In this document: positions 1 through 55,410 of the stretch, piece by piece
How positions within the stretch are numbered: the first letter of the stretch is position 1
Layout of the letters: each line of letters begins with the position of its first letter
IMG/VR virus record: IMGVR_UViG_3300031965_000020
Span: 3,529-67,528 of that record
Source: a virus
Lineage: Duplodnaviria; Caudoviricetes
Length of the DNA: 64,000 nt
Reading direction: 5' to 3' (one strand)
Position numbers and translations under genes: made by a program
The notes under the pieces: generated by a model
What the model was told of the DNA's origin: nothing
The model's database searches: none
The model's input: the letters and a program-made list of their open reading frames with translations, nothing else

Positions 1-1345
1 CAGCCCCATATGCTCCGGGGAGTGCTGTCGCCCACGGATCGCCGGCACTGCTGGCGCTGTTGAGCGCGAGGCCGGTACTCCCTGCCGTCAGATGCCCTGC
101 GATGGGCTCGTCCCAGACCCCATCGGCAATCTCGGCAACGGCATCGGCGGCAAGTGCCGCAGCGTCGATCGCGTCGGCTGCAAACGATGCGGCCGTGATA
201 CCTCCCGTAGCGATGCTGCCGACTGAGCCTGTGACGTTGCCGCCGACGTTGCCCGTGACGGAACCGACCGCTCCGGTGACCGATCCGACGGCACCGGACA
301 CAGATGCTACGACCTGATCGACGTCGATATTGGTTCCCGAGAGGTTCAGTGCCGTCGTTGGATTCTCGACATTGGCCCAGTCGATTCCCGCGTTGCCTGC
401 AACGCTGACGTCCAGCGTGCGGGCGGCCACCGTCGGAGCCAGCCGTGAACTGACAAGCGCGTCCAAGTTCGTTCCGAGGATGAAGCCAGCGGTGCCTGCA
501 CCGTACGCGCCAGGCAGCGCGGTTGCCCACGGGTCGCCTGCGCTGCTCGCGTTGCTGAGTGCTTCACCCGTGCTCCCAGCAGCCACATGACTGGCGAGCG
601 TGGCATCCCAGACGGCGTTTTCTACGTCGGTGATCGCACCGGCTGCGAGACCTCCGATATTGCCAGAGACAGAGGCGACTGATCCATCGACGTTGCCTTG
701 CACGTCGCCCACGACATTGCCGCCGACGTTGCCGGTTACCGAGCCGACTGCCCCTGTCACCGAGCCCACGGCACCGGTGACGCTGCCGACCGCGCCAGAG
801 ACCGACGCGACCACCTGATCGACGTCGATGTTCGTTCCGGAGAGATCCACGGCGGTAGTGGGATTCTCGACGTTCGCCCAGTCGATGCCCGCCGCGCCAG
901 TCGCCGTCACGTCCAGCGTGCGAGCCGCGACGGTCGGTGCCAGCAGGCCGGTCGTCCCAGCATCTACCAGCGAGTTGTTCAAGGCGGCTGCACGGAAGCA
1001 GATCACGGGCCCGCGCCAGGGCAGGATGCCCGTCGCGACGCCCGTGAACCAGCCGAAGCCTTCGGTATCGTTGTTGATGGAGGCCCCACCCGAGGCTGGA
1101 ATTTCGATCGCGTACATCCCCGAGGCGCCTTGATCGGTCCAGTCGTAGTCGCCCGCAGATGTCGGGGTCACCGCCGTGCATGTCTGCACTCCAGCGGTCG
1201 TGACAAAGTTCCAGAAGAGCGCCAACCCGGCCTGATTGAAGACCACGGCATCTTCAATCGTCTTGAAGTCGGTATCGTCGATGAGCGGCAGAATGTTGAC
1301 GGGAACTTCTGCCAGCGCCGTATCGACATCCATGCAGATTTGCAT
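1..1345 (-). CDS. Repeat-containing tail fibre/virion protein, truncated by window edge
   Basis: Hand translation MQICMDVDTALAEVPVNILPLIDDTDFK...; SD-like AAGGA upstream; frame open to position 1; ~500-bp internal duplication and VTGAVGS repeats; missing from ORF track because it runs off the edge. Confidence 0.8.
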   Translation of the reverse strand, partial: MQICMDVDTALAEVPVNILPLIDDTDFKTIEDAVVFNQAGLALFWNFVTTAGVQTCTAVTPTSAGDYDWTDQGASGMYAIEIPASGGASINNDTEGFGWFTGVATGILPWRGPVICFRAAALNNSLVDAGTTGLLAPTVAARTLDVTATGAAGIDWANVENPTTAVDLSGTNIDVDQVVASVSGAVGSVTGAVGSVTGAVGSVTGNVGGNVVGDVQGNVDGSVASVSGNIGGLAAGAITDVENAVWDATLASHVAAGSTGEALSNASSAGDPWATALPGAYGAGTAGFILGTNLDALVSSRLAPTVAARTLDVSVAGNAGIDWANVENPTTALNLSGTNIDVDQVVASVSGAVGSVTGAVGSVTGNVGGNVTGSVGSIATGGITAASFAADAIDAAALAADAVAEIADGVWDEPIAGHLTAGSTGLALNSASSAGDPWATALPGAYGA

Positions 1346-3026: not shown

Positions 3027-5132
3027 TCATGCAGGCCGCTCAAAGATCAGCGTATCGTCTTCGGGCACTGCAGGCAGCACATAATTCTTGAGCACGACCA
3101 CGTCGCGTCCGTAACTAATCGCAGGGGCCGACAACAGCCCTACCGGCGATGACGTATTGTGCTGGAACCAGAACGCCGAGATACCGTTGTAGATCTTCGC
3201 CGGATTGCCGTTCTTGTAGCGATTGATCGGGATCTTGTAGAGAATGCGCAGCGGCCCGCTCGTTGGCGTGAGAATCCACGACGAGCACATGTGGTACAAC
3301 AGCCCCGGATCGAGCGGCACGCCGGTTTGCGCTTCCCATTCGGGAAACTGCGTCGCATCCAGATTCAGCCGAATCTCCTGAACGTAGCGAATCCAGGTGC
3401 TATGTGGCAGGAACACCGTGTTTGGCGGCTCGATGCCTGGTCCTCCAGGTGCGCCATTGTTATCTGTCGCCCCGGCCACAAATGCAGGATAGATGCGATG
3501 GCGAACCACCCCGACGTTGCCAGCGGTCGAAAACTGATATCGCGTCTGCGTCTCGAAGAAAATTGAGCCTTGAAAATCCGCACCATCCTCATCGAAAGCA
3601 CAATGAAATTCCTTGTGTTGATACGCAGCGTTCGTCAGATTTCCGCCATTCTCGACGCTCTGCCACTCAGGGCCAAACCAGTAGTCCCATGTGACGAGGA
3701 TTGTGCCGGCGATCTGATGGACCGGGAAGACCAGCTTCTGACCGCCTCCGATACTGGCCTGGTCCGTGGGAAAAATCAGCTTTGCCGCATCTTGCTTCGC
3801 GGGATACGGATCACTGGCAAAGTCGTACGTATAACGCATCGAGAGGCCATTCTTGGTCAGGCCGTTCAACTCGACTTGATTGCGAAGACTACGACTCACC
3901 AATGCCGTCGATAGAGCACTCAAGGTCGCGAAGCGTGTACCGCTCGGTGGGGTAGGCGGAACAGCAAAGACCGTCAAATCGAGCGTCTTGATCGTGCCGA
4001 GTCCGTGCTGGTCGGTGACCACGAGTTGGGCGGTGTAGATACCTGATTGGCCGTAGCGCTTCGATGCAGTCGCTGGTGGCGCACCGGTATAGACAATGTC
4101 CCCAGATCCGTCCCCCCAGTTCAGCCGGCTGGACGCAATCGTGTCTCCGTCTGGATCGAGCGCGCTCATGGCGACAACGAAGTCGTCGGTGACGTAGATG
4201 CCAGAGACGCGTGAGAAGGTCACCTGCGGTGGCTGATTGGGCGCCGGAAGCGCGCTGATCGTCGTCGTGAGCGTGACGGTTGTTACCTGTCCGCTGGTGT
4301 CGGTGCAGGTCAACGCCACTTGGAAGGCACCTGACGTTGCATAGACATGGTTCAGACTCAGCGGCGGCACGCCCGCTGCACTGACAACAGTCCCATCGCC
4401 ATAATCAATGGACCAAGACGCCAATGACCAGTAGCCAGCGTGGGTTCCTTCAGTGCTCCAGGTAATCGTCTCGCCGACGAACTGACCCGAGACGTACTCC
4501 AGCGCGACAATCGGCGGATCCTGCACGGGCGGTGGATCGGGATCAGGGTCAGGTGGCGGTGGAATCGGATCGGCCGCGACGACAACGTCCGTCACGACCT
4601 CCGTAGTCAGTCCATTTGATGCGGTGACTCGTACGGTTACGACATACGCGATGGCCGCGCCGTACGTATGGGACACCGGGGTGGGCACGGCACCGTTCTC
4701 GTCGATCACGGTTCCATCGCCGTAATCAATATGGTACGACGCGATCTGTCCGACCACTTCGATGTCGAAGACGAATGCCTCGGAGAGATAGACACCCTCG
4801 ATGAGCGTCACCATGAGTGAGGGTGGCATCGGCGGAGGTGCCGACGGCACCGAAATTTCAATCGCCTGCGAGACGGTCGACATGCGCCCTTTGTTGTCTT
4901 CGACGTAGAGCGTCACGATGACCGTGCCGCCCGCTGTCGCATAGGTATAGGGAAGCGAGGCAGGCGGGAAGCCAGTCCCTTCGATGGGTGCGGACCCATC
5001 GCCAAGGTCGACGCGCCACTTTCGCAGAGTACCCTGCCGTGCGAAACTCGCCGACCCGTCGATGTTGATTTCGTCACCGTCACTGCCCAAGCGAGTGAGC
5101 GTCAAGACCGCTTGCGGAGATCGATCCTTCAC
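3027..5132 (-). CDS. PKD/Ig-like domain virion protein with C-terminal beta-sandwich
   Basis: Four W/Y-x-x-D/W-x-GDG PKD signatures (WRVDLGDG, YHIDYGDG, WSIDYGDG, RLNWGDG); GTG start after GGAGG preferred over track start 5180. Confidence 0.75.
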   Translation of the reverse strand: MKDRSPQAVLTLTRLGSDGDEINIDGSASFARQGTLRKWRVDLGDGSAPIEGTGFPPASLPYTYATAGGTVIVTLYVEDNKGRMSTVSQAIEISVPSAPPPMPPSLMVTLIEGVYLSEAFVFDIEVVGQIASYHIDYGDGTVIDENGAVPTPVSHTYGAAIAYVVTVRVTASNGLTTEVVTDVVVAADPIPPPPDPDPDPPPVQDPPIVALEYVSGQFVGETITWSTEGTHAGYWSLASWSIDYGDGTVVSAAGVPPLSLNHVYATSGAFQVALTCTDTSGQVTTVTLTTTISALPAPNQPPQVTFSRVSGIYVTDDFVVAMSALDPDGDTIASSRLNWGDGSGDIVYTGAPPATASKRYGQSGIYTAQLVVTDQHGLGTIKTLDLTVFAVPPTPPSGTRFATLSALSTALVSRSLRNQVELNGLTKNGLSMRYTYDFASDPYPAKQDAAKLIFPTDQASIGGGQKLVFPVHQIAGTILVTWDYWFGPEWQSVENGGNLTNAAYQHKEFHCAFDEDGADFQGSIFFETQTRYQFSTAGNVGVVRHRIYPAFVAGATDNNGAPGGPGIEPPNTVFLPHSTWIRYVQEIRLNLDATQFPEWEAQTGVPLDPGLLYHMCSSWILTPTSGPLRILYKIPINRYKNGNPAKIYNGISAFWFQHNTSSPVGLLSAPAISYGRDVVVLKNYVLPAVPEDDTLIFERPA

Positions 5133-46997: not shown

Positions 46998-47170
46998 CTC
47001 CTCCTAGGGGCGCTGGTCGTCGTCTAGCGTGCTCCTTGCTGCTGTCCACTGTGGCCGCAGTGGCCCTGAGTATAGCCTTCCCCGCGATGGATGCGTGGCA
47101 GAAACCGTGGCTGATCGTCTGCATTATCTGTAATGTGCTGCTGATCGTGGTGAACGAGCAACCCTTATGA
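46994..47170 (+). CDS. 58-aa two-TM membrane protein
   Basis: Hand translation MTPPRGAGRRLACSLLLSTVAAVALSIAFPAMDAWQKPWLIVCIICNVLLIVV; ATGA coupling. Confidence 0.55.
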   Translation: MTPPRGAGRRLACSLLLSTVAAVALSIAFPAMDAWQKPWLIVCIICNVLLIVVNEQPL

Positions 47171-47268
47171 CACCTGACGACCCACCTCTGCAGAGCTACG
47201 ACGATCGCCAGCGCGACGCCAAGCGTGCGGTGTGCCCATTCGAAAGTCTGAGCAAAAGCTGCTGATCG

Positions 47269-49563
47269 ATGGCTAACCAGAATCCCCGTTATCCGCGCCC
47301 GGCTGGCTGCTCCGGCTGCTCCCTTGAGCACAACGGCTTCGGCTTCGTGCCTCCGGCGGGTCCAACCGACGCGCGGCTCATCCTCATTGGCGAATCGGCC
47401 GGCTGGGAGGAAGCAATCTCTGGCGAGCCGTTCTACGGGGCAGCTGGCGGGACGTTGTCGCGCTTGTTGGTGCGGGCGGGGATCGACCGCCGTCACGCAC
47501 GCATCGCGAACACAATCGCGTGCCGTCCGCCGGGCGATTACCTCGTCGGCGCCCCGTGGGAGGAGCACGCCATCGCACAATGCCGGCAATATCTCGATCC
47601 GGTGCTTGCCGCGGTGCCTGACAACGCAGTCGTCGTCCCGCTGGGCGCCACCGCGCTGACGACAGTCCTCGGATTACGCGGCGTGCCGGGCGTCAGCGTC
47701 AAGGATTTCCACGGGACGGTGTCGAGGTCAGTTGATGACCGCTACTGGGTCGTACCAACGTTTCACCCATCGCACCTGCAACGTGGCGCGATGAATTTGA
47801 TTGAAGTCGTCAGCCAGGATTTGCGACTGGCAGATCGGATTGGGCAGCGTGGGTTTGTTAGATCGCATTCTGAACTCGTCGTCGATCCTCATCCTGATTG
47901 GCTTCGCATGTGGGTTGGCCGGTATCTGCGCGATCTGGCTGGCGATCCGGAGACACACCACCTCGCTCTCGACACCGAGTTCGCCGAAAAATCCGGCGGA
48001 GCCGATGAATCTGAAGTTGTGCTCGGCGATGGTTCTTCACCCATCACCAGAGTCAATGGGGGACGGGATGCTCATACAGGGTGGACTGTACCTTATCGCC
48101 AACCGTACATCGCGATCCTTGAAGATCTCCTACGCGGAGTTGGTGGACAGCAGGGGTGGCTCTGGCTCTGGAATAAGTACGCAGACCTTGATCATCTCCG
48201 ACGTGCCGGACATGCCCTGACGGGCATTCAAGCCATCGACGCGATGTGGCTGTGGCATTACCTGCAGAGCGATTTACCACGCGGGTTGGGGTTTGTAGCC
48301 CCGATGGCTAGCGACTTCGGCGCGTGGAAGCACTGGGGCAAGGACAAGTCTCGTGAGGGCGAATACGCGGCTGCGGATGGCCAGCAGACTTGGCGTACAT
48401 CCATGTGGTTGTTGAAGGCGGCGATCGATCAGGGGATTTGGGAGATATTTTTAACTGATTGGCACGAGCGGGATGAATATGTGCTGCGGCCGGCGCATGA
48501 GCTGGGCACGCCGGTGAATAGAACCGCGCTGGTGGCGTTCCATGCGGAGCTGCAGCGGAAGCTGGCGTCGGTGCTAGAGCGGATCAAACTGACGGCTGCG
48601 CAGGGGGTGTTGAAACCTAAATTGGGGTATCGCAAGCGGCCGATGAAGACGTGCAGTGTGTGCGGCGGGAACGGTCGTATCCTCGTCGAAGGTGATTACA
48701 TCATCCGCGTGGGGCGGGGTAAGGGCTACGACGATATTGAGGGCATTGTTGCGTGCTTGTCGTGCAAGGGGGAAGGAAATCTACCTGCGCCGGTGCCTGC
48801 ATCTGTACTAGGCAAATTGACCGCCGGTGACGCCAAGGCGACCTACATGCTGGAAGGGGTGAAGCTTGTCGAACGTGAAGTCGAAGCGGACGTCACCGTC
48901 TGTGATAGCTGCGGAGCTGCGTGTGTTACACAATCGCATCGTTGTCCTCGACCGAAAGGTCCAAAGCGACCTCGGGCTGCTCGTCGCAAGAGTCGAGTCA
49001 ATGACGCAGGTGCTGTCGACGTTCATCAATCGAGTAGACACGTTGACGAACACGACAACCAACCTGCTCGACCACACGCAGCGTTTCGTGTGGAACGCCG
49101 TGCAGTCACTCGCTACTTCTGGCAACTCCCCTTCAACCCCGACGCGCCCGCGCAAATCCTCGCCTATCTCGCGAGTCAAAACATCGCCGCGCCCGTCGAC
49201 AAGAAAACCAAGCGCGCCACGACCAACAAGAAAGCGCTCGATGCGCTGAAGGCGCAGCATAGAGACGACCCCTTCTTCCAGTTGCAGATGGATTGGAAAG
49301 CGGTGCAGAAGGTGGATAGCGTGTATGCCGTAGGCAGTCTAGCCAAGCTCGACGATGACGACCGTTTGCATCCTGAGTTTTTGCCAAAGCCGTCGACCTT
49401 CCGCGATAGCTGCCAGAATCCGAACTTGCAGAACGTGGTCGCCGACAAGGCTGGGGCTGAGGGGTTAGCCGCAGGGTTCAGGCGCTGCATCGAGGCGAGA
49501 GACGGCGCGCCTGCGGGGACGACTGAGGATATGCTCCGCGCGTGGAGGAGTCGATGGACGTGA
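47269..49563 (+). CDS. polA: DNA polymerase A, N-terminal part: family 4 UDG domain, 3'-5' exonuclease, thumb
   Basis: CSGCSL...ILIGESAGWEE..SGEPFYGAAG, NTIACRPP, PTFHPS (UDG4); ALDTE, WNKYAD, YAAADG (Exo I-III); FNP, RLHPEF, NPNLQN (PolA). Confidence 0.9.
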   Translation: MANQNPRYPRPAGCSGCSLEHNGFGFVPPAGPTDARLILIGESAGWEEAISGEPFYGAAGGTLSRLLVRAGIDRRHARIANTIACRPPGDYLVGAPWEEHAIAQCRQYLDPVLAAVPDNAVVVPLGATALTTVLGLRGVPGVSVKDFHGTVSRSVDDRYWVVPTFHPSHLQRGAMNLIEVVSQDLRLADRIGQRGFVRSHSELVVDPHPDWLRMWVGRYLRDLAGDPETHHLALDTEFAEKSGGADESEVVLGDGSSPITRVNGGRDAHTGWTVPYRQPYIAILEDLLRGVGGQQGWLWLWNKYADLDHLRRAGHALTGIQAIDAMWLWHYLQSDLPRGLGFVAPMASDFGAWKHWGKDKSREGEYAAADGQQTWRTSMWLLKAAIDQGIWEIFLTDWHERDEYVLRPAHELGTPVNRTALVAFHAELQRKLASVLERIKLTAAQGVLKPKLGYRKRPMKTCSVCGGNGRILVEGDYIIRVGRGKGYDDIEGIVACLSCKGEGNLPAPVPASVLGKLTAGDAKATYMLEGVKLVEREVEADVTVCDSCGAACVTQSHRCPRPKGPKRPRAARRKSRVNDAGAVDVHQSSRHVDEHDNQPARPHAAFRVERRAVTRYFWQLPFNPDAPAQILAYLASQNIAAPVDKKTKRATTNKKALDALKAQHRDDPFFQLQMDWKAVQKVDSVYAVGSLAKLDDDDRLHPEFLPKPSTFRDSCQNPNLQNVVADKAGAEGLAAGFRRCIEARDGAPAGTTEDMLRAWRSRWT
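48866..49249 (+). CDS. Overprinted coiled-coil protein nested in +1 frame of polA
   Basis: 127 aa; heptad pattern; hand count GC3 53/70 in this frame versus 24/70 in the pol frame over 48901-49111. Confidence 0.55.
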   Translation: MSNVKSKRTSPSVIAAELRVLHNRIVVLDRKVQSDLGLLVARVESMTQVLSTFINRVDTLTNTTTNLLDHTQRFVWNAVQSLATSGNSPSTPTRPRKSSPISRVKTSPRPSTRKPSAPRPTRKRSMR

Positions 49564-49817
49564 TTGCACGCAAGGCGACGTTACTCAAGATGCCATTCGC
49601 GACGAGGCACTTCAATGCCAATCAGCGCGTGTGGGTGCTCGTCATTCGCTATCGGGCTGTGTACTGTATTGGCAAGTTTCGTGGCAGCGGGCGCTATGTC
49701 AAGGCGTGGGTTCACTGGAAAGGGAACATACCACTGCCGCTGAATGACATCGTGGTCACACGCGCATTCGCAGAACGGCTACATCTCTCGTCTGCGTTTG
49801 GGACGGACAATGGCTGA
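49554..49817 (+). CDS. Hypothetical protein inserted between polA halves
   Basis: GGAGGAG SD; GKFRGSGRYVKAWV. Confidence 0.65.
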   Translation: MDVIARKATLLKMPFATRHFNANQRVWVLVIRYRAVYCIGKFRGSGRYVKAWVHWKGNIPLPLNDIVVTRAFAERLHLSSAFGTDNG

Positions 49818-50268
49818 CTTAATCTCCCCCAAAGCCCTCAGCAACAAATTCTTCATCAATAGCCTAGCGGCTGGCCGCGGCATGCAAGCGCTGATGCGCG
49901 GCCAGATCATCGGCCCAATCGGCGTCGAGTTCAGCCCGTTCTATCTGTGCCGTGTGTTCCCAGCCGATGACGACGAGATCGAGATCTCGACCGAAACAGT
50001 CCTCGCGCTGGAGCAACTCGTCGGCGTCTATTTCTACGATGACCGGCAGACGCTTGACGTGGCATGGTCGCTGGTACAGCGCAAGATCGCCGTGCACGCC
50101 GCCAAGCAGCGCCGGGAGCGGAAAGCATTAGCAAAGAAGCAGATCGCCGAGATCACCGACACGCTGAAGCGCCAGGGGATCAACGTGGTCAAGGAGGAGG
50201 AGATCAAGGATTACGTCTCGCTGCGTGGTGGGGCGATTGCGGAGCAGGCGGAGGCGGATGACGATTGA
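49810..50268 (+). CDS. Hypothetical protein inserted between polA halves
   Basis: 152 aa; strong coding bias. Confidence 0.7.
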   Translation: MADLISPKALSNKFFINSLAAGRGMQALMRGQIIGPIGVEFSPFYLCRVFPADDDEIEISTETVLALEQLVGVYFYDDRQTLDVAWSLVQRKIAVHAAKQRRERKALAKKQIAEITDTLKRQGINVVKEEEIKDYVSLRGGAIAEQAEADDD

Positions 50269-50283
50269 GGCAAAGGTGGAGCC

Positions 50284-50550
50284 ATGACAGTACGCGAATG
50301 GTATCGGATACAACGCGGTGAGCTGTGGCGGCGGGATGATGGTCTCGCTCACGACGTTGATCGCATTGCCACCTTGATCGTCCACGATCAAGGTCCACTC
50401 AAATGGACACGCGTAGGGCCTTTCCACTGGGTGGCATCGGTAGAGTCGGTCCTGGAGCGAGAGCGTGTCTTAGCGTTGGTACGAGCTGACATGGACAATG
50501 CGCTGCGGCGACTGCACCAGTTGTTCTACGCGAAGGATCTCGTCAAGTGA
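50284..50550 (+). CDS. Hypothetical protein inserted between polA halves
   Basis: 88 aa; GGAG SD. Confidence 0.6.
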   Translation: MTVREWYRIQRGELWRRDDGLAHDVDRIATLIVHDQGPLKWTRVGPFHWVASVESVLERERVLALVRADMDNALRRLHQLFYAKDLVK

Positions 50551-50572
50551 CGACTAGCAGCGGAGGCGCTGG

Positions 50573-51658
50573 GTGGGGTGGATGACGACTGAAGCGGATG
50601 TTTCCTGCCGTCTGTGCGAGTACGATTTTTCCGGGATCGAAGCCGTCCTCACAGGCATGTTCCTCTGGAAGCACGGCTTCTCCTCCGACGGTGCCAAGCA
50701 GTATATCCGCCTCGCCCGCCTTGGCATGCACGCCGCCGTCACCGCGCTCAAAGTTGGAAAACCGGTGGACTTGACATTGGCCGACGATCAGGTCAAGCCC
50801 GCCCTCGATGCGATCAAGAAAGCCTATCCCCGCGAGTACGACACATCGAAACGCACCGTCCACGCGAACAACTTCGGCATGTCGACCTATGGCATGGTCG
50901 AGAAGTTTCCTGAGTTCTTCCCAACGCTCAAGGCAGCCGAGCAGTTCCAGCGGCTGTACTACGCACTCGCACCGGATCTGCCGAAGTGGCACCACGCGCT
51001 GCGGAAGCAAGCGAGAGACGCAGGCTATCTCGGTGGCGTCGCGAAGCCCAGTATCCAGCCATCAATCTGGACACACCCCTACGGCTATCGCCACTGGTTT
51101 TGGGACGTGCAGAACTTCCAGCCCTGCAACGAGTTCACCGCTCGCAAATGGCACGCTGACCCGACTCGCGCTCATCGCATTGTCTACATGCACGGCAGGC
51201 CGTTCAAGGTGCGGCCGGGAGGTGACGCGAATCGCGTGATTGCGTTCTATCCACAGTCGACCGCGGCTGGTCGGCTCAAAGAAGTCGAGAACCGGCTGTT
51301 CCTCCCGTGGAGCGATGACTATATCGGGGATTGCTACTTCGGCCGGACGCCGCTGCTCGGGCCGATCCATGATTCGCTGCTGCTGCATGTACCGAATCGC
51401 TGCGTGGATAAAGTCACCGAGATCGTCGCGAGGGTCATGCAGGAGCCGAGTCGATACCTACCGATTCCCCCGGCATGGGGCTGGGGCGATTATTTACCGA
51501 TTGGCGTCGCGGCCAAGATCGGCCGTAACTGGGGCGAGATGGAAGACTTGAAGATTCAACAGTGGGTGCCGAGTGCGGGAGCCGATAATCCTGTCCTGCC
51601 ACGCGAGTCCGAGGGCGAATACGACGACTGGCAGGAATTGGCGAGGAGTGTGGCATGA
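50573..51658 (+). CDS. polA: DNA polymerase A, C-terminal part (palm/fingers, motifs A-C)
   Basis: Motif A YDFSGIE, motif B SKRTVHANNFGM, FYPQSTAA, motif C PIHDSLLL; own GGAGG SD; in-frame stop just upstream. Confidence 0.9.
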   Translation: MGWMTTEADVSCRLCEYDFSGIEAVLTGMFLWKHGFSSDGAKQYIRLARLGMHAAVTALKVGKPVDLTLADDQVKPALDAIKKAYPREYDTSKRTVHANNFGMSTYGMVEKFPEFFPTLKAAEQFQRLYYALAPDLPKWHHALRKQARDAGYLGGVAKPSIQPSIWTHPYGYRHWFWDVQNFQPCNEFTARKWHADPTRAHRIVYMHGRPFKVRPGGDANRVIAFYPQSTAAGRLKEVENRLFLPWSDDYIGDCYFGRTPLLGPIHDSLLLHVPNRCVDKVTEIVARVMQEPSRYLPIPPAWGWGDYLPIGVAAKIGRNWGEMEDLKIQQWVPSAGADNPVLPRESEGEYDDWQELARSVA

Positions 51659-52113
51659 AGATCGGCATTGTTGGGTCCGAAGGCGCAAAGTTCACGGCGG
51701 TCACAGAGGCAGCAGCGCGTGTATTCATCTCTACGTTGCTTGCTGATGCGGCGTTGATTGTGTCTGGTGAATGCCATCTTGGCGGCGTCGATATCTTTGC
51801 GAGGCAGGAAGCTGAGCGCGCAGGAGTCCCCTTCAAAGGCTACCCCCCGCGTCGCTTGGTCTGGGATGGCGGGTACAAACAACGCAATCTTCAGATTGCC
51901 GAGGCGAGTGATCGTGTGTACTGCATCACGCTCCGTGAACTACCAGAGACGTATGAAGGTATGCGCTTCAATGTCTGCTATCACTGTCGTCTACAGGATC
52001 ACGTCAAATCCGGTGGCTACTGGACCGTGAAGCAGGCGGTCGCGCAAGGGAAGGAAGGCCGGATTGTGATCATTGACCCGACCGGAAATCTAGTTGATCG
52101 GGCATGGCAGTGA
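51655..52113 (+). CDS. SLOG (DprA/YspA-like) family protein
   Basis: IGIVGS, IVSGECHLGGVD..A, KQRNLQIAEASD, SGGYWT. Confidence 0.7.
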   Translation: MKIGIVGSEGAKFTAVTEAAARVFISTLLADAALIVSGECHLGGVDIFARQEAERAGVPFKGYPPRRLVWDGGYKQRNLQIAEASDRVYCITLRELPETYEGMRFNVCYHCRLQDHVKSGGYWTVKQAVAQGKEGRIVIIDPTGNLVDRAWQ

Positions 52114-52222
52114 CCTACGACGATTGCCAAGTCATTCACTCCACCCTCGTCCGCTGCATCCGCTGCCGACGCTGGTGGTACATGACGTTACCGTGGCTCA
52201 TTTGCGTGGAGTGCGCGGACCA

Positions 52223-52540
52223 ATGACCCGCTACGACGGCCGCAACGGCACGATCGTCCGCGTCCTCATGCTGATGAAACACATCGAAGGGATGCGTCGC
52301 GTGAACCTGCGCGCGGCAGCGACGTACTTGAACGTCCATCCCAGGACCATTCGCCGCGATCTGATGGCACTGGAAGAGGCGGGGTATTCGGTGCCGCCGT
52401 GGCGTGTCAGCGGTGGAGAGAAGACAACGGCTTCGGCGGCTCCGGCAACTCGGGCAACTCCGCCGGGTCTACCGGCTCTGCCGGCTTCGTCGGCTGTGCC
52501 GTCAGCCCTTGGGTCGTTACCAAGCGGAGGGCCATGTTGA
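52223..52540 (+). CDS. HTH_11/DeoR-type winged-helix regulator
   Basis: LRAAATYLNVHPRTIRRDLMALEEAGY. Confidence 0.75.
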   Translation: MTRYDGRNGTIVRVLMLMKHIEGMRRVNLRAAATYLNVHPRTIRRDLMALEEAGYSVPPWRVSGGEKTTASAAPATRATPPGLPALPASSAVPSALGSLPSGGPC

Positions 52541-53952: not shown

Positions 53953-55047
53953 TTACAGCACCAGCAAATAGACCAGCCCATTCGCCATGTAGCAGGTGAT
54001 CCGGCCGGAGGGATCGAGGTTGGCTTTCACCCGGTCATCGTAGGACGATCCACCACCATTCGCGATGAGCGGGGTCAGGCCACCGCCATCGAGCGCGACG
54101 AGGCTCAAATGGGTATTACCACTATGCAAGCATCGCCCGCCGCGCAGCGAGACGTAGCCCATGTTCCAAGTCGAGAAGAGCGGCCGCTTGGTCAGTGTCG
54201 GCAAATCCCAGAGGACGCACGCGCCGACCTGGTTGTCCTCGCCGACCATGATCGAGTCGCCGCAGTCCGAGTGCCCGACCGCGCCAGCCGCATCGGGGAT
54301 GATGCGCTCTTCTCCCGTGGCGACGGTGACAATCCGATTGTCCTCGTTCTCCTTGATCACGAGATAGGCGCCATCGCGGGTGACTTGCGACTCATCCAAG
54401 GCGCCCATCGCCGGAAAGAAGGTGGTATGTCCAGGCGCGATCAGGAGCGTACCGATGCGCTCGTACGGTCCATCCGACGTGATGCGCTCGACGGTCGCCG
54501 AGTGGACCAGCCCGTCATCGGACGAGTGCGCTTGCCAGAGCCGGCAGCCGGGATGCGACGTACTGATATCGACGAGGATCTCGCCTGCGTCATGGAGCGT
54601 GAATGGATTGATGCGACAGAGACGAGGCCCATCGCAGAGCGAGATGTGCCCGTTGCGGTCCCAGTACCAGCCCTCGGTCGTAGAAGCAGCGTACTTGATA
54701 CGCATTCCGAGCGGCGTCACACGGCCGTCCTGCAGATCGACTTGGAAGAACCTCGCGCGTCCATCGACGTGCCCGGCGAAGACAATCGCATAATCGCCCA
54801 TCGTCCAGGCATTCGCCCAGTAGCTGTACATGCGGGGATGAAACGGGCCGTCCTCGCGTTGCGTGACCTGGATGACTTTCACGGCGCCTGGGGGAATAGA
54901 CGGAGACGGACCAGTGGGGTTGCCGTGCGCCGCTTCGTAACTCCACAGATCCCACACCGCGACATCGCCGTCATAGACGACGAAGTTGTCGTCACCCTGA
55001 TCGACAGCCCGGATCTGGGGGTTGGCCGATGCGTGCAGTTCTCTCAT
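53953..55047 (-). CDS. Beta-propeller (TolB/WD40-like) protein
   Basis: Repeated blade motifs (SDDGLVHS, TRDGAYLV, DPSGRITCY); ATG 55047 overlaps upstream stop. Confidence 0.65.
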   Translation of the reverse strand: MRELHASANPQIRAVDQGDDNFVVYDGDVAVWDLWSYEAAHGNPTGPSPSIPPGAVKVIQVTQREDGPFHPRMYSYWANAWTMGDYAIVFAGHVDGRARFFQVDLQDGRVTPLGMRIKYAASTTEGWYWDRNGHISLCDGPRLCRINPFTLHDAGEILVDISTSHPGCRLWQAHSSDDGLVHSATVERITSDGPYERIGTLLIAPGHTTFFPAMGALDESQVTRDGAYLVIKENEDNRIVTVATGEERIIPDAAGAVGHSDCGDSIMVGEDNQVGACVLWDLPTLTKRPLFSTWNMGYVSLRGGRCLHSGNTHLSLVALDGGGLTPLIANGGGSSYDDRVKANLDPSGRITCYMANGLVYLLVL

Positions 55048-55250
55048 CAGAATCGCAGGTTGAACGACTCGCCACCTCCACCGACCACGCCAATCCAGCG
55101 CAGTAGGTACAGCACGAAAATCACCACCAGCAGCACGTGTAGCATCGTGACAATCGGCGCGGGGATGCCGAACGCGCCAGCGAGCTGGCCGATCGCCCAG
55201 AAGGCCAAGCCGAGCAGGATCAGCACGACGATGAGTCCGATGAGATCCAT
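55047..55250 (-). CDS. Small two-TM membrane protein
   Basis: MDLIGLIVVLILLGLAFWAI...LLVVIFVLYLL; AAGGAG SD. Confidence 0.75.
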   Translation of the reverse strand: MDLIGLIVVLILLGLAFWAIGQLAGAFGIPAPIVTMLHVLLVVIFVLYLLRWIGVVGGGGESFNLRF

Positions 55251-55410
55251 GTGGAGACTCCTTATTGAGGTAACGATACCTGGTGGCATCTGCTGGCATC
55301 TACGCCGACGTCACCGATACGCTGATGGTTCGTCCGTCTAAAATACATTGGGCCAGGGGAGTTAGGGAGTGGGCGCAGTTATCGCAACGGTTTCATCACA
55401 GAGGTTCAGT

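Follow-up and report, generated by a model that had tools for sequence, protein, structure and literature searches.

How can a single replicative DNA polymerase be encoded by two genes that have other genes between them? The question is raised by a five-gene block in an uncultured phage (Caudoviricetes) represented by IMG/VR record IMGVR_UViG_3300031965_000020, which is 67.5 kb long and complete according to CheckV. We analyzed positions 3,529 to 67,528 of that record, a stretch of 64,000 nucleotides that covers nearly all of it; we call this whole stretch the window and give coordinates in it. On the + strand, head to tail, lie a gene for the N-terminal part (N-part) of a family A DNA polymerase (PolA), three small open reading frames (ORFs) that we call orfA, orfB and orfC, and a gene for the C-terminal part (C-part), each with its own Shine-Dalgarno (SD) sequence. 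We consider it probable, at about 80%, that this block reflects true gene fission of a replicative PolA, fused to a uracil-DNA glycosylase (UDG)-like domain, into two gene products. We favor fission because the split is conserved clade-wide, ratios of nonsynonymous to synonymous substitution rates (dN/dS) are 0.09-0.20, some relatives couple the stop of one gene to the start of the other with zero gap, and an Rfam scan was empty. Judged from the sequences compared here, a spliceless two-subunit polymerase is supported as a trait of the whole clade.

The two polymerase genes and the position of the cut

The N-part gene (47269-49563, 764 aa) encodes a UDG-like domain, a 3'-5' exonuclease, a thumb and the start of the palm, as far as FRRCI. 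The UDG-like domain (about 47350-47790) sits N-terminal to the exonuclease; it gives a PF03167 match of 73.9 bits over residues 28-174 and matches PDB profiles of the family-4 UDGs of Thermotoga maritima (Tm) and Thermus thermophilus (Tth). A match to the polymerase family PF00476, at positions 29-135 (the first third), scores 37.9 bits against a cut-off of 34.3. Exo I, Exo II, Exo III and the FRRC arginines are all in the N-part, and its final polymerase elements, placed by alignment with fused relatives, run from NPNLQN (49417-49434) to FRRCI (49477-49491), after which come a 23-aa tail and a TGA stop. The UDG-like region (47269-47790) also retains the HPS motif and the four cysteines typical of family-4 iron-sulfur UDGs, and in this putative domain GESAG replaces GEAPG.

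The C-part gene (50573-51658, 361 aa) lies in a different reading frame, with stops in between. An in-frame TAG (50555-50557) and a GGAGG SD (50562-50566) occupy the stretch just before it (50555-50572), and the start, GTG 50573, has a spacing of 6 from the SD. Motifs A, B and C of family A DNA polymerases are all present in the C-part: the motif A strand YDFSGIE (50621-50641), with its Asp at residue 18; motif B in the fingers, KRTVHANNFG..YG with its K..Y.G pattern (50849-50893, K93); and motif C, HDS (HD at 51368-51373). Residues D18, E23, K93, H266 and D267 are invariant between the C-part and 19 homologs. On the PHROG_17 polymerase profile the N-part reaches position 1005 (E 1e-18) and the C-part begins at 1006 (E 9e-14); therefore the two parts together make one polymerase with a clean break. 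An earlier note on this DNA had read a PolA in two genes with three ORFs in between, an N-part ending after NPNLQN...FRRCI plus a tail of about 25 aa, a C-part starting 17 aa before motif A behind the TAG and GGAGG, and a complete set of catalytic motifs, and ORF layout and the PHROG_17 break bear out each of these statements.

Where in the fold does the cut fall? We mapped it against 110 related loci drawn from viral and metagenome collections. In fused relatives the sequence runs ...LAAGFRRCIVAxPG-CRLLEVDFSGIE, and the equivalent of N-part residue 746 directly adjoins that of C-part residue 12. By the standard motif order of PolA (in E. coli Pol I, ...RRIRQAFIAPEDYVIVSADYSQIELR), the cut falls in the turn of a palm beta-hairpin whose two strands are the R-x-F (RRAF-like) strand, FRRCI in the window, and the strand that bears motif A; it is therefore inside the palm. 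The earlier note had proposed a heterodimeric PolA split at the thumb-palm boundary; the two-product polymerase is supported by the conservation, dN/dS, zero-gap relatives and Rfam result named above, whereas the boundary has to be moved into the palm hairpin. Split forms carry two additions at this point: an N-part tail of about 18 aa with the consensus RDGVPxGxTxxELxAWExRW, and a C-part head of about 8-11 aa (M-I/T-T-A-D-V-S). Both are conserved throughout the split clade, and the tail motif is missing from fused forms. In the window the clade-specific tail is APAGTTEDMLRAWRSRWT followed by the stop (49507-49563), and we propose it as a docking helix.

A cut through this hairpin leaves neither product with a complete polymerase active site or palm sheet, which argues against the idea that the two products have gone separate ways, the N-product alone serving as a UDG/exonuclease DNA-binding factor and the C-product working with another partner, with no polymerase re-formed. 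The UDG-like and exonuclease domains are indeed complete in the N-product, and the intervening genes could uncouple the stoichiometry of the halves. However, the halves are neighbors in each related locus that is long enough to include the two, and a relative in which they are joined again (P0123, described below) is evidently tolerated and is predicted to fold as one PolA. We therefore regard separated functions as improbable, though less so than the other alternatives weighed below.

Conservation of the split and the question of splicing

A split found in one metagenome-derived contig could be a chimera or a frameshift error. We surveyed relatives for fused and split forms, as the earlier note had suggested. 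In a search of 5.8 billion proteins, C-parts that stand alone (330-575 aa) formed more than 120 clusters at 42-100% identity, and many of these came from contigs 60-68 kb long; fused UDG-PolA proteins of about 1000 aa appeared only at 52% identity or less. All of the roughly 21 contigs with C-part identity of at least 51% and both parts visible are split. Because these some 21 independent contigs share the same split, it is far beyond chance; the architecture recurs in independent assemblies from many samples and sources, and the roughly 1 kb of coding sequence in the gap has conserved homologs. The misassembly that the earlier note named as a possible refutation is thus contradicted, and the probability of an assembly or sequencing artefact is negligible.

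The split clade consists of soil and groundwater phages. In a C-part tree from a quick LG+G4 search, the split forms, including the window, make up one clade with a Shimodaira-Hasegawa-like approximate likelihood ratio test (SH-aLRT) value of 99. Its earliest branches include the zero-gap members L060 and L003, and a clade of 20 rows within it (support 98) contains, among the loci with a readable gap, gap-bearing forms only. The zero-gap junctions are GTGA in L004 and L067, ATGA in L062, and TTGA or a 10-nt overlap in L060. Among INPHARED phage GenBank records, tblastn gave no match to the C-part and matched the N-part through the UDG region only; thus, no cultured close relative exists.

Could the polymerase instead be a decaying pseudogene, with replication carried out by another polymerase, of the host or otherwise? 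An otherwise single-gene enzyme is indeed interrupted by a stop codon and a change of frame, and the earlier note had named dN/dS near 1 in either half as a sign of decay. By the Nei-Gojobori method (NG86), the N-part has a dN/dS of 0.14-0.19 and the C-part one of 0.09-0.20, values that are rough because dS (0.6-1.5, and up to 2.7 in one orfC comparison) is near saturation. They indicate purifying selection on both halves and are far from decay. The catalytic residues are all invariant across the clade, and the split has persisted in more than 20 contigs that have diverged to as little as about 50% identity. Decay is accordingly a very improbable explanation. The corresponding values for the gap genes are 0.12-0.20 for orfC and 0.35-0.58 for orfB.

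The remaining alternative is that the halves are rejoined by splicing, either of RNA, through a group I or group II intron carrying the three ORFs, or of protein, through a split or degenerate intein that ligates the two products. Introns do occur in phage PolA genes, inteins occur at four other sites in this polymerase family, and an intron was suspected by the authors who described a comparable split in phage MEP401 (PMC10580990). Against splicing of RNA, an Rfam E-value scan of 47000-52500 was empty, with no ribozyme core, and the gap has hardly any space for one: the junctions along the block measure -10, -8, +15 and +22 nt, so that its non-coding DNA amounts to 15 + 22 nt (about 37 in all) and some 96% of it is coding. 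Zero-gap relatives, whose genes overlap by 1-16 nt, have no intron space at all, and gap content is unrelated among relatives. Against splicing of protein, the extensions at the break (18 and 11 aa) are far below the size of an intein half, and the two parts are in different frames. The re-fused P0123 retains tail and head as ordinary sequence. The earlier note had argued from three packed, SD-bearing genes filling the gap that there was no room for an intron core, and from the absence of intein termini that no intein was involved; both arguments hold, and we judge splicing, like decay, to have very little probability.

Two candidate coincidences of site were considered and rejected. Intein-sized in-frame inserts occur in relatives at four sites: around residue 90 in the UDG domain (N~90), in NPNLQN (N~725), in motif B (C-part 98/99; C~98) and at about C-part residue 224 (C~224). 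All of these are away from the junction, so the split site is not an intein site. The insert-bearing relatives are P0121, P0122, P0124-P0126, P0137, P0147, P0177, P0179, P0186, P0213, P0228 and P0239; many have Intein_splicing or HNH_3 Pfam matches, and some of the inserts sit within already-split C-part genes. The break in SPO1 gene 31, a group I intron, is inside the motif equivalent to NPNLQN. The motif A strand, where the window is cut, lies about 30 codons further downstream, and the two sites are thus near, but not identical. Given the inteins at NPNLQN and motif B and the SPO1 intron, the conserved-motif DNA around the cut is a known target zone for mobile elements.

What would the two products look like when assembled? 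One relative, P0123, branches within the split clade but is a single chain of 1084 aa; it retains the tail as well as the head (...DAWRARWEVTSDDTRCVLAELDFSGIE), and by its sequence it appears to be a natural re-fusion. An AlphaFold2 (AF2) model of P0123, built with a 94-sequence alignment, has a predicted local distance difference test (pLDDT) score of 92.3 and a predicted template modeling (pTM) score of 0.88. In this model the tail is predicted to form a helix (residues 713-723, pLDDT about 96), which a short loop connects to the motif A strand. Over exonuclease and polymerase, the model compares with Klenow, KlenTaq and Bst at Foldseek target-normalized TM scores of 0.65-0.79, and the Klenow-like fold (exonuclease, thumb, palm and fingers) is complete in it, for this single-chain relative rather than for the pair of the window. 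The model supports, without proving, the view that the two products in the window could re-form an ordinary PolA with their new termini adjacent.

We thus envisage fission working as follows. The five genes would form one transcription unit and be carried on one polycistronic mRNA (no promoter-like or terminator-like site was found on the + strand within the gap), and the N- and C-parts would be translated as separate polypeptides. These would reassemble without covalent joining into the normal PolA fold. The tail of about 18 aa (...ELxAWExRW) may aid assembly as a helix beside the re-formed hairpin, a role we suggest by analogy with the essential tails of the mobE-split NrdA of phage Aeh1 (PMC3045599). 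The split itself may have arisen by a stop/start (ATGA) mutation in an enlarged loop, or else by insertion of a free-standing HNH-type mobile gene (endonuclease) or a cargo cassette that was later lost or replaced.

Several points weigh against this account. The association of the two products is something we infer, and the model that supports it is of P0123, a single-chain relative at 52% identity, rather than of the two products in the window. In its match to the last part of PF00476 the C-part scores 27.6 bits, below the Pfam cut-off of 34.3, and its start is ambiguous between GTG 50573 and ATG 50582. The dN/dS values carry the roughness noted above. Finally, no homing endonuclease is recognizable in the window's gap with Pfam or PHROGs, and a mobile-element origin is unsupported for this genome.

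The gap genes and the recurrence of the cut

The three genes between the halves are closely packed. The first, orfA (49554-49817, 87 aa), has the SD GGAGGAG (49545-49551) and overlaps the N-part stop by 10 nt; orfB (49810-50268, 152 aa) has a ATGGCTGA overlap with orfA; and orfC (50284-50550, 88 aa) belongs to a small phage family. Pfam and PHROGs gave no family hit, and the ESM Atlas no usable lead, to the function of any of the three. For orfA there was no Pfam or PHROG match and no homolog among the 110 related loci, and its guanine-plus-cytosine (GC) content by codon position is gene-like. The closest relative, L052 (87% C-part identity), lacks orfA, has orfB directly after the N-part and carries in addition a PAPS-reductase-like gene. 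Homologs of orfB occur in the same gap in L052 (66%), L031 and L040; no family was assigned to it with Pfam, PHROGs or the ESM Atlas, the sole match being a sub-threshold one to Sigma70_r1_1.

Homologs of orfC are found both in the gap (L041/42, L039, L048, L031) and directly downstream of fused polymerases (L072, L076-78, L082, L006), and the family has 53 representatives in a library at 50% identity. Its AF2 model (pLDDT 89) has a predicted alpha-alpha-beta hairpin-alpha arrangement and no Foldseek match in PDB or BFVD. Roughly the first 15 codons of orfC (MTVREWFRLQRAALW, 50284-50330) are conserved in L008, L031, L038 and L039 even where the remainder is unrelated, which suggests a putative boundary or recombination sequence, or else an N-terminal module.

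Gaps in the main clade, where present, measure 0.3-1.9 kb, and their content differs even among close relatives; other relatives carry NADAR, macro, Dam, sigma-70 region 4 protein, DUF6283 and zinc-ribbon genes. In two loci, cargo ORFs (L041:6387-7004 and L055:1605-2105) start with a duplicate of the first 6-14 codons of the C-part (MITADTSCRILEVD..., VITADVS...) and then diverge. This duplicated head is a footprint of recombinational insertion in the 5' end of the C-part gene. With two cistrons in place, the junction became a landing pad for exchangeable accessory genes, represented by orfA-C in the window and by NADAR, macro, PAPS-reductase, Dam, sigma-like and HNH-like genes in relatives.

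Cuts in this hairpin recur outside the main clade. In L011/L102/L103 the halves meet in an ATGA overlap with no tail (...CIVAA and stop / MSECVFIEADFS), in L085 they overlap by 17 nt, and in L008 an 815-bp gap holds a NADAR gene and an orfC-like gene. A further clade, L015/L107/L086/L093, has gaps of 1.5-2.3 kb, and three of its four genomes carry an HNH-like ORF there (L015:5628-6098, L107:6480-7001, L086:3916-4548). The HNH_3 matches in the gaps of L107, L015, L086 and L055 are all sub-threshold (E 0.001-0.005); a His-Me finger-like motif was seen by eye in the ORFs of this second clade, and the L015 copy is adjoined by NADAR and zinc-ribbon genes. A single origin of all splits was rejected as one clade by the approximately unbiased (AU) test at p = 0.025, a result that is suggestive, the group having been picked after the tree was viewed. 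The tails of the L015/L107/L086/L093 clade (..PEW..G.TPEEL.EY and stop) resemble that of the main clade (..P.G.T..EL.AW..RW and stop) despite their separate clades in the C-part tree; this likeness could be due to convergence, or to transfer of the junction by recombination.

From these sequences, the same hairpin split appears to have arisen independently in other lineages, MEP401 among them. It is tempting to generalize. PolA may in general tolerate fission at the hairpin that precedes motif A, which would have been broken independently at least four to five times (the main clade, L011, L085, L008, the L015/L107/L086/L093 clade and MEP401). Fission would then be followed by the evolution of a docking tail, and the slot between the cistrons would serve phages as a privileged place, co-expressed with replication, in which accessory or counter-defense genes (NADAR, macro, PAPS-reductase, Dam, HNH) are swapped. 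We offer this only tentatively, as an idea with the odds somewhat against it.

Beyond the block, the gene directly downstream of the C-part (51655-52113, 152 aa) has weak DprA-like and zinc-finger matches. Its counterpart lies upstream of the N-part in L039 and L098, and gene order around the polymerase is therefore fluid. Two ORFs elsewhere in the window (2-1345 and 53953-55299) are both 448 aa long, an equality that we dismissed as coincidence.

These findings matter to several fields. A single-subunit replicative polymerase can, on our reading, be stably encoded as two polypeptides cut through the catalytic palm, and phages appear to have reached the same hairpin split more than once. Polymerase engineers would gain a naturally validated PolA split site and a candidate docking helix, with possible uses in split-enzyme reporters, conditional polymerases and altered substrate tolerance of the kind seen for engineered split Pfu. 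For phage biologists the junction is a defined hot spot of accessory-gene exchange inside a replication operon. Annotators and surveys of PolA diversity should bear in mind that metagenomic PolA genes of 360 aa and 760 aa, although they look truncated, can each encode one half of a working enzyme.

Comparison with known systems

How unusual is such a split? The earlier note had thought a split here in family A, together with the nested gene, unusual; within family A it has precedents among described phages. The marine OM43 phages MEP401 and MEP402, related to the Zobellviridae, have a split PolA with a small ORF between the halves, as do most related metagenomic genomes, by a mechanism that the authors left open (PMC10580990). 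We checked record OP830906: MEP401 gp13 ends ...SPNLQN...LFLSRYGE and a stop, gp15 begins MILNADAKALEW (motif A), and an ORF of 77 aa lies between them. The cut is thus at the same structural position as in the window, with an ORF of unassigned function between the halves. In contrast to the window, MEP401 represents an unrelated PolA lineage without the UDG domain or the long tail, and has one ORF in the gap rather than three. The same cut site in OM43 phages is already known, as are two-gene enzymes ("genes in pieces"); new, as far as we found, are evidence at clade scale for a PolA of two subunits made without splicing, a tail that is conserved, a hairpin used repeatedly and a gap that behaves as a cargo slot.

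Family A polymerases made from two genes are known in other forms. T7-like cyanophages of the S-SBP1 type have separate exonuclease and polymerase genes (PMC10201439), and in LUZ24-like phages about ten small ORFs separate "DNA polymerase part I" and "part II" (PMC3890496). These resemble the window in drawing one polymerase from two genes; however, their cuts follow the exonuclease-polymerase domain boundary, whereas that of the window divides the polymerase domain itself. In family B, according to the summary of Petrov 2006/2010 in PMC3061061, T4-related gp43 is encoded by two cistrons with 2 bp to 3 kb of diverse inserted DNA. As summarized there, gp43 is likewise a replicative polymerase cut in a loop of the catalytic domain, with the same spectrum from zero gap to kilobases, but it is cut at the tip of the fingers and not in the palm hairpin. 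An engineered split family B polymerase (Pfu) was fully active by experiment (PMC3061061).

The NrdA of phage Aeh1 offers a different kind of parallel. This essential, replication-related enzyme is split in its active-site region by the homing endonuclease mobE, and short terminal tails at the break are essential for its activity (PMC3045599), and the N-part tail conserved here can be understood on that model. The enzyme is a different one, and its causative endonuclease is still present, whereas the window's gap has none and some relatives have sub-threshold HNH-like ORFs. The domain order of the window has counterparts: UDG-PolA fusions are known in SPO1, SP-10/15 and N4-like phages (PMC10201439), which share with it a family-4 UDG-like domain N-terminal to exonuclease and polymerase. 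Those enzymes, however, are single chains, whereas that of the window is encoded as two.

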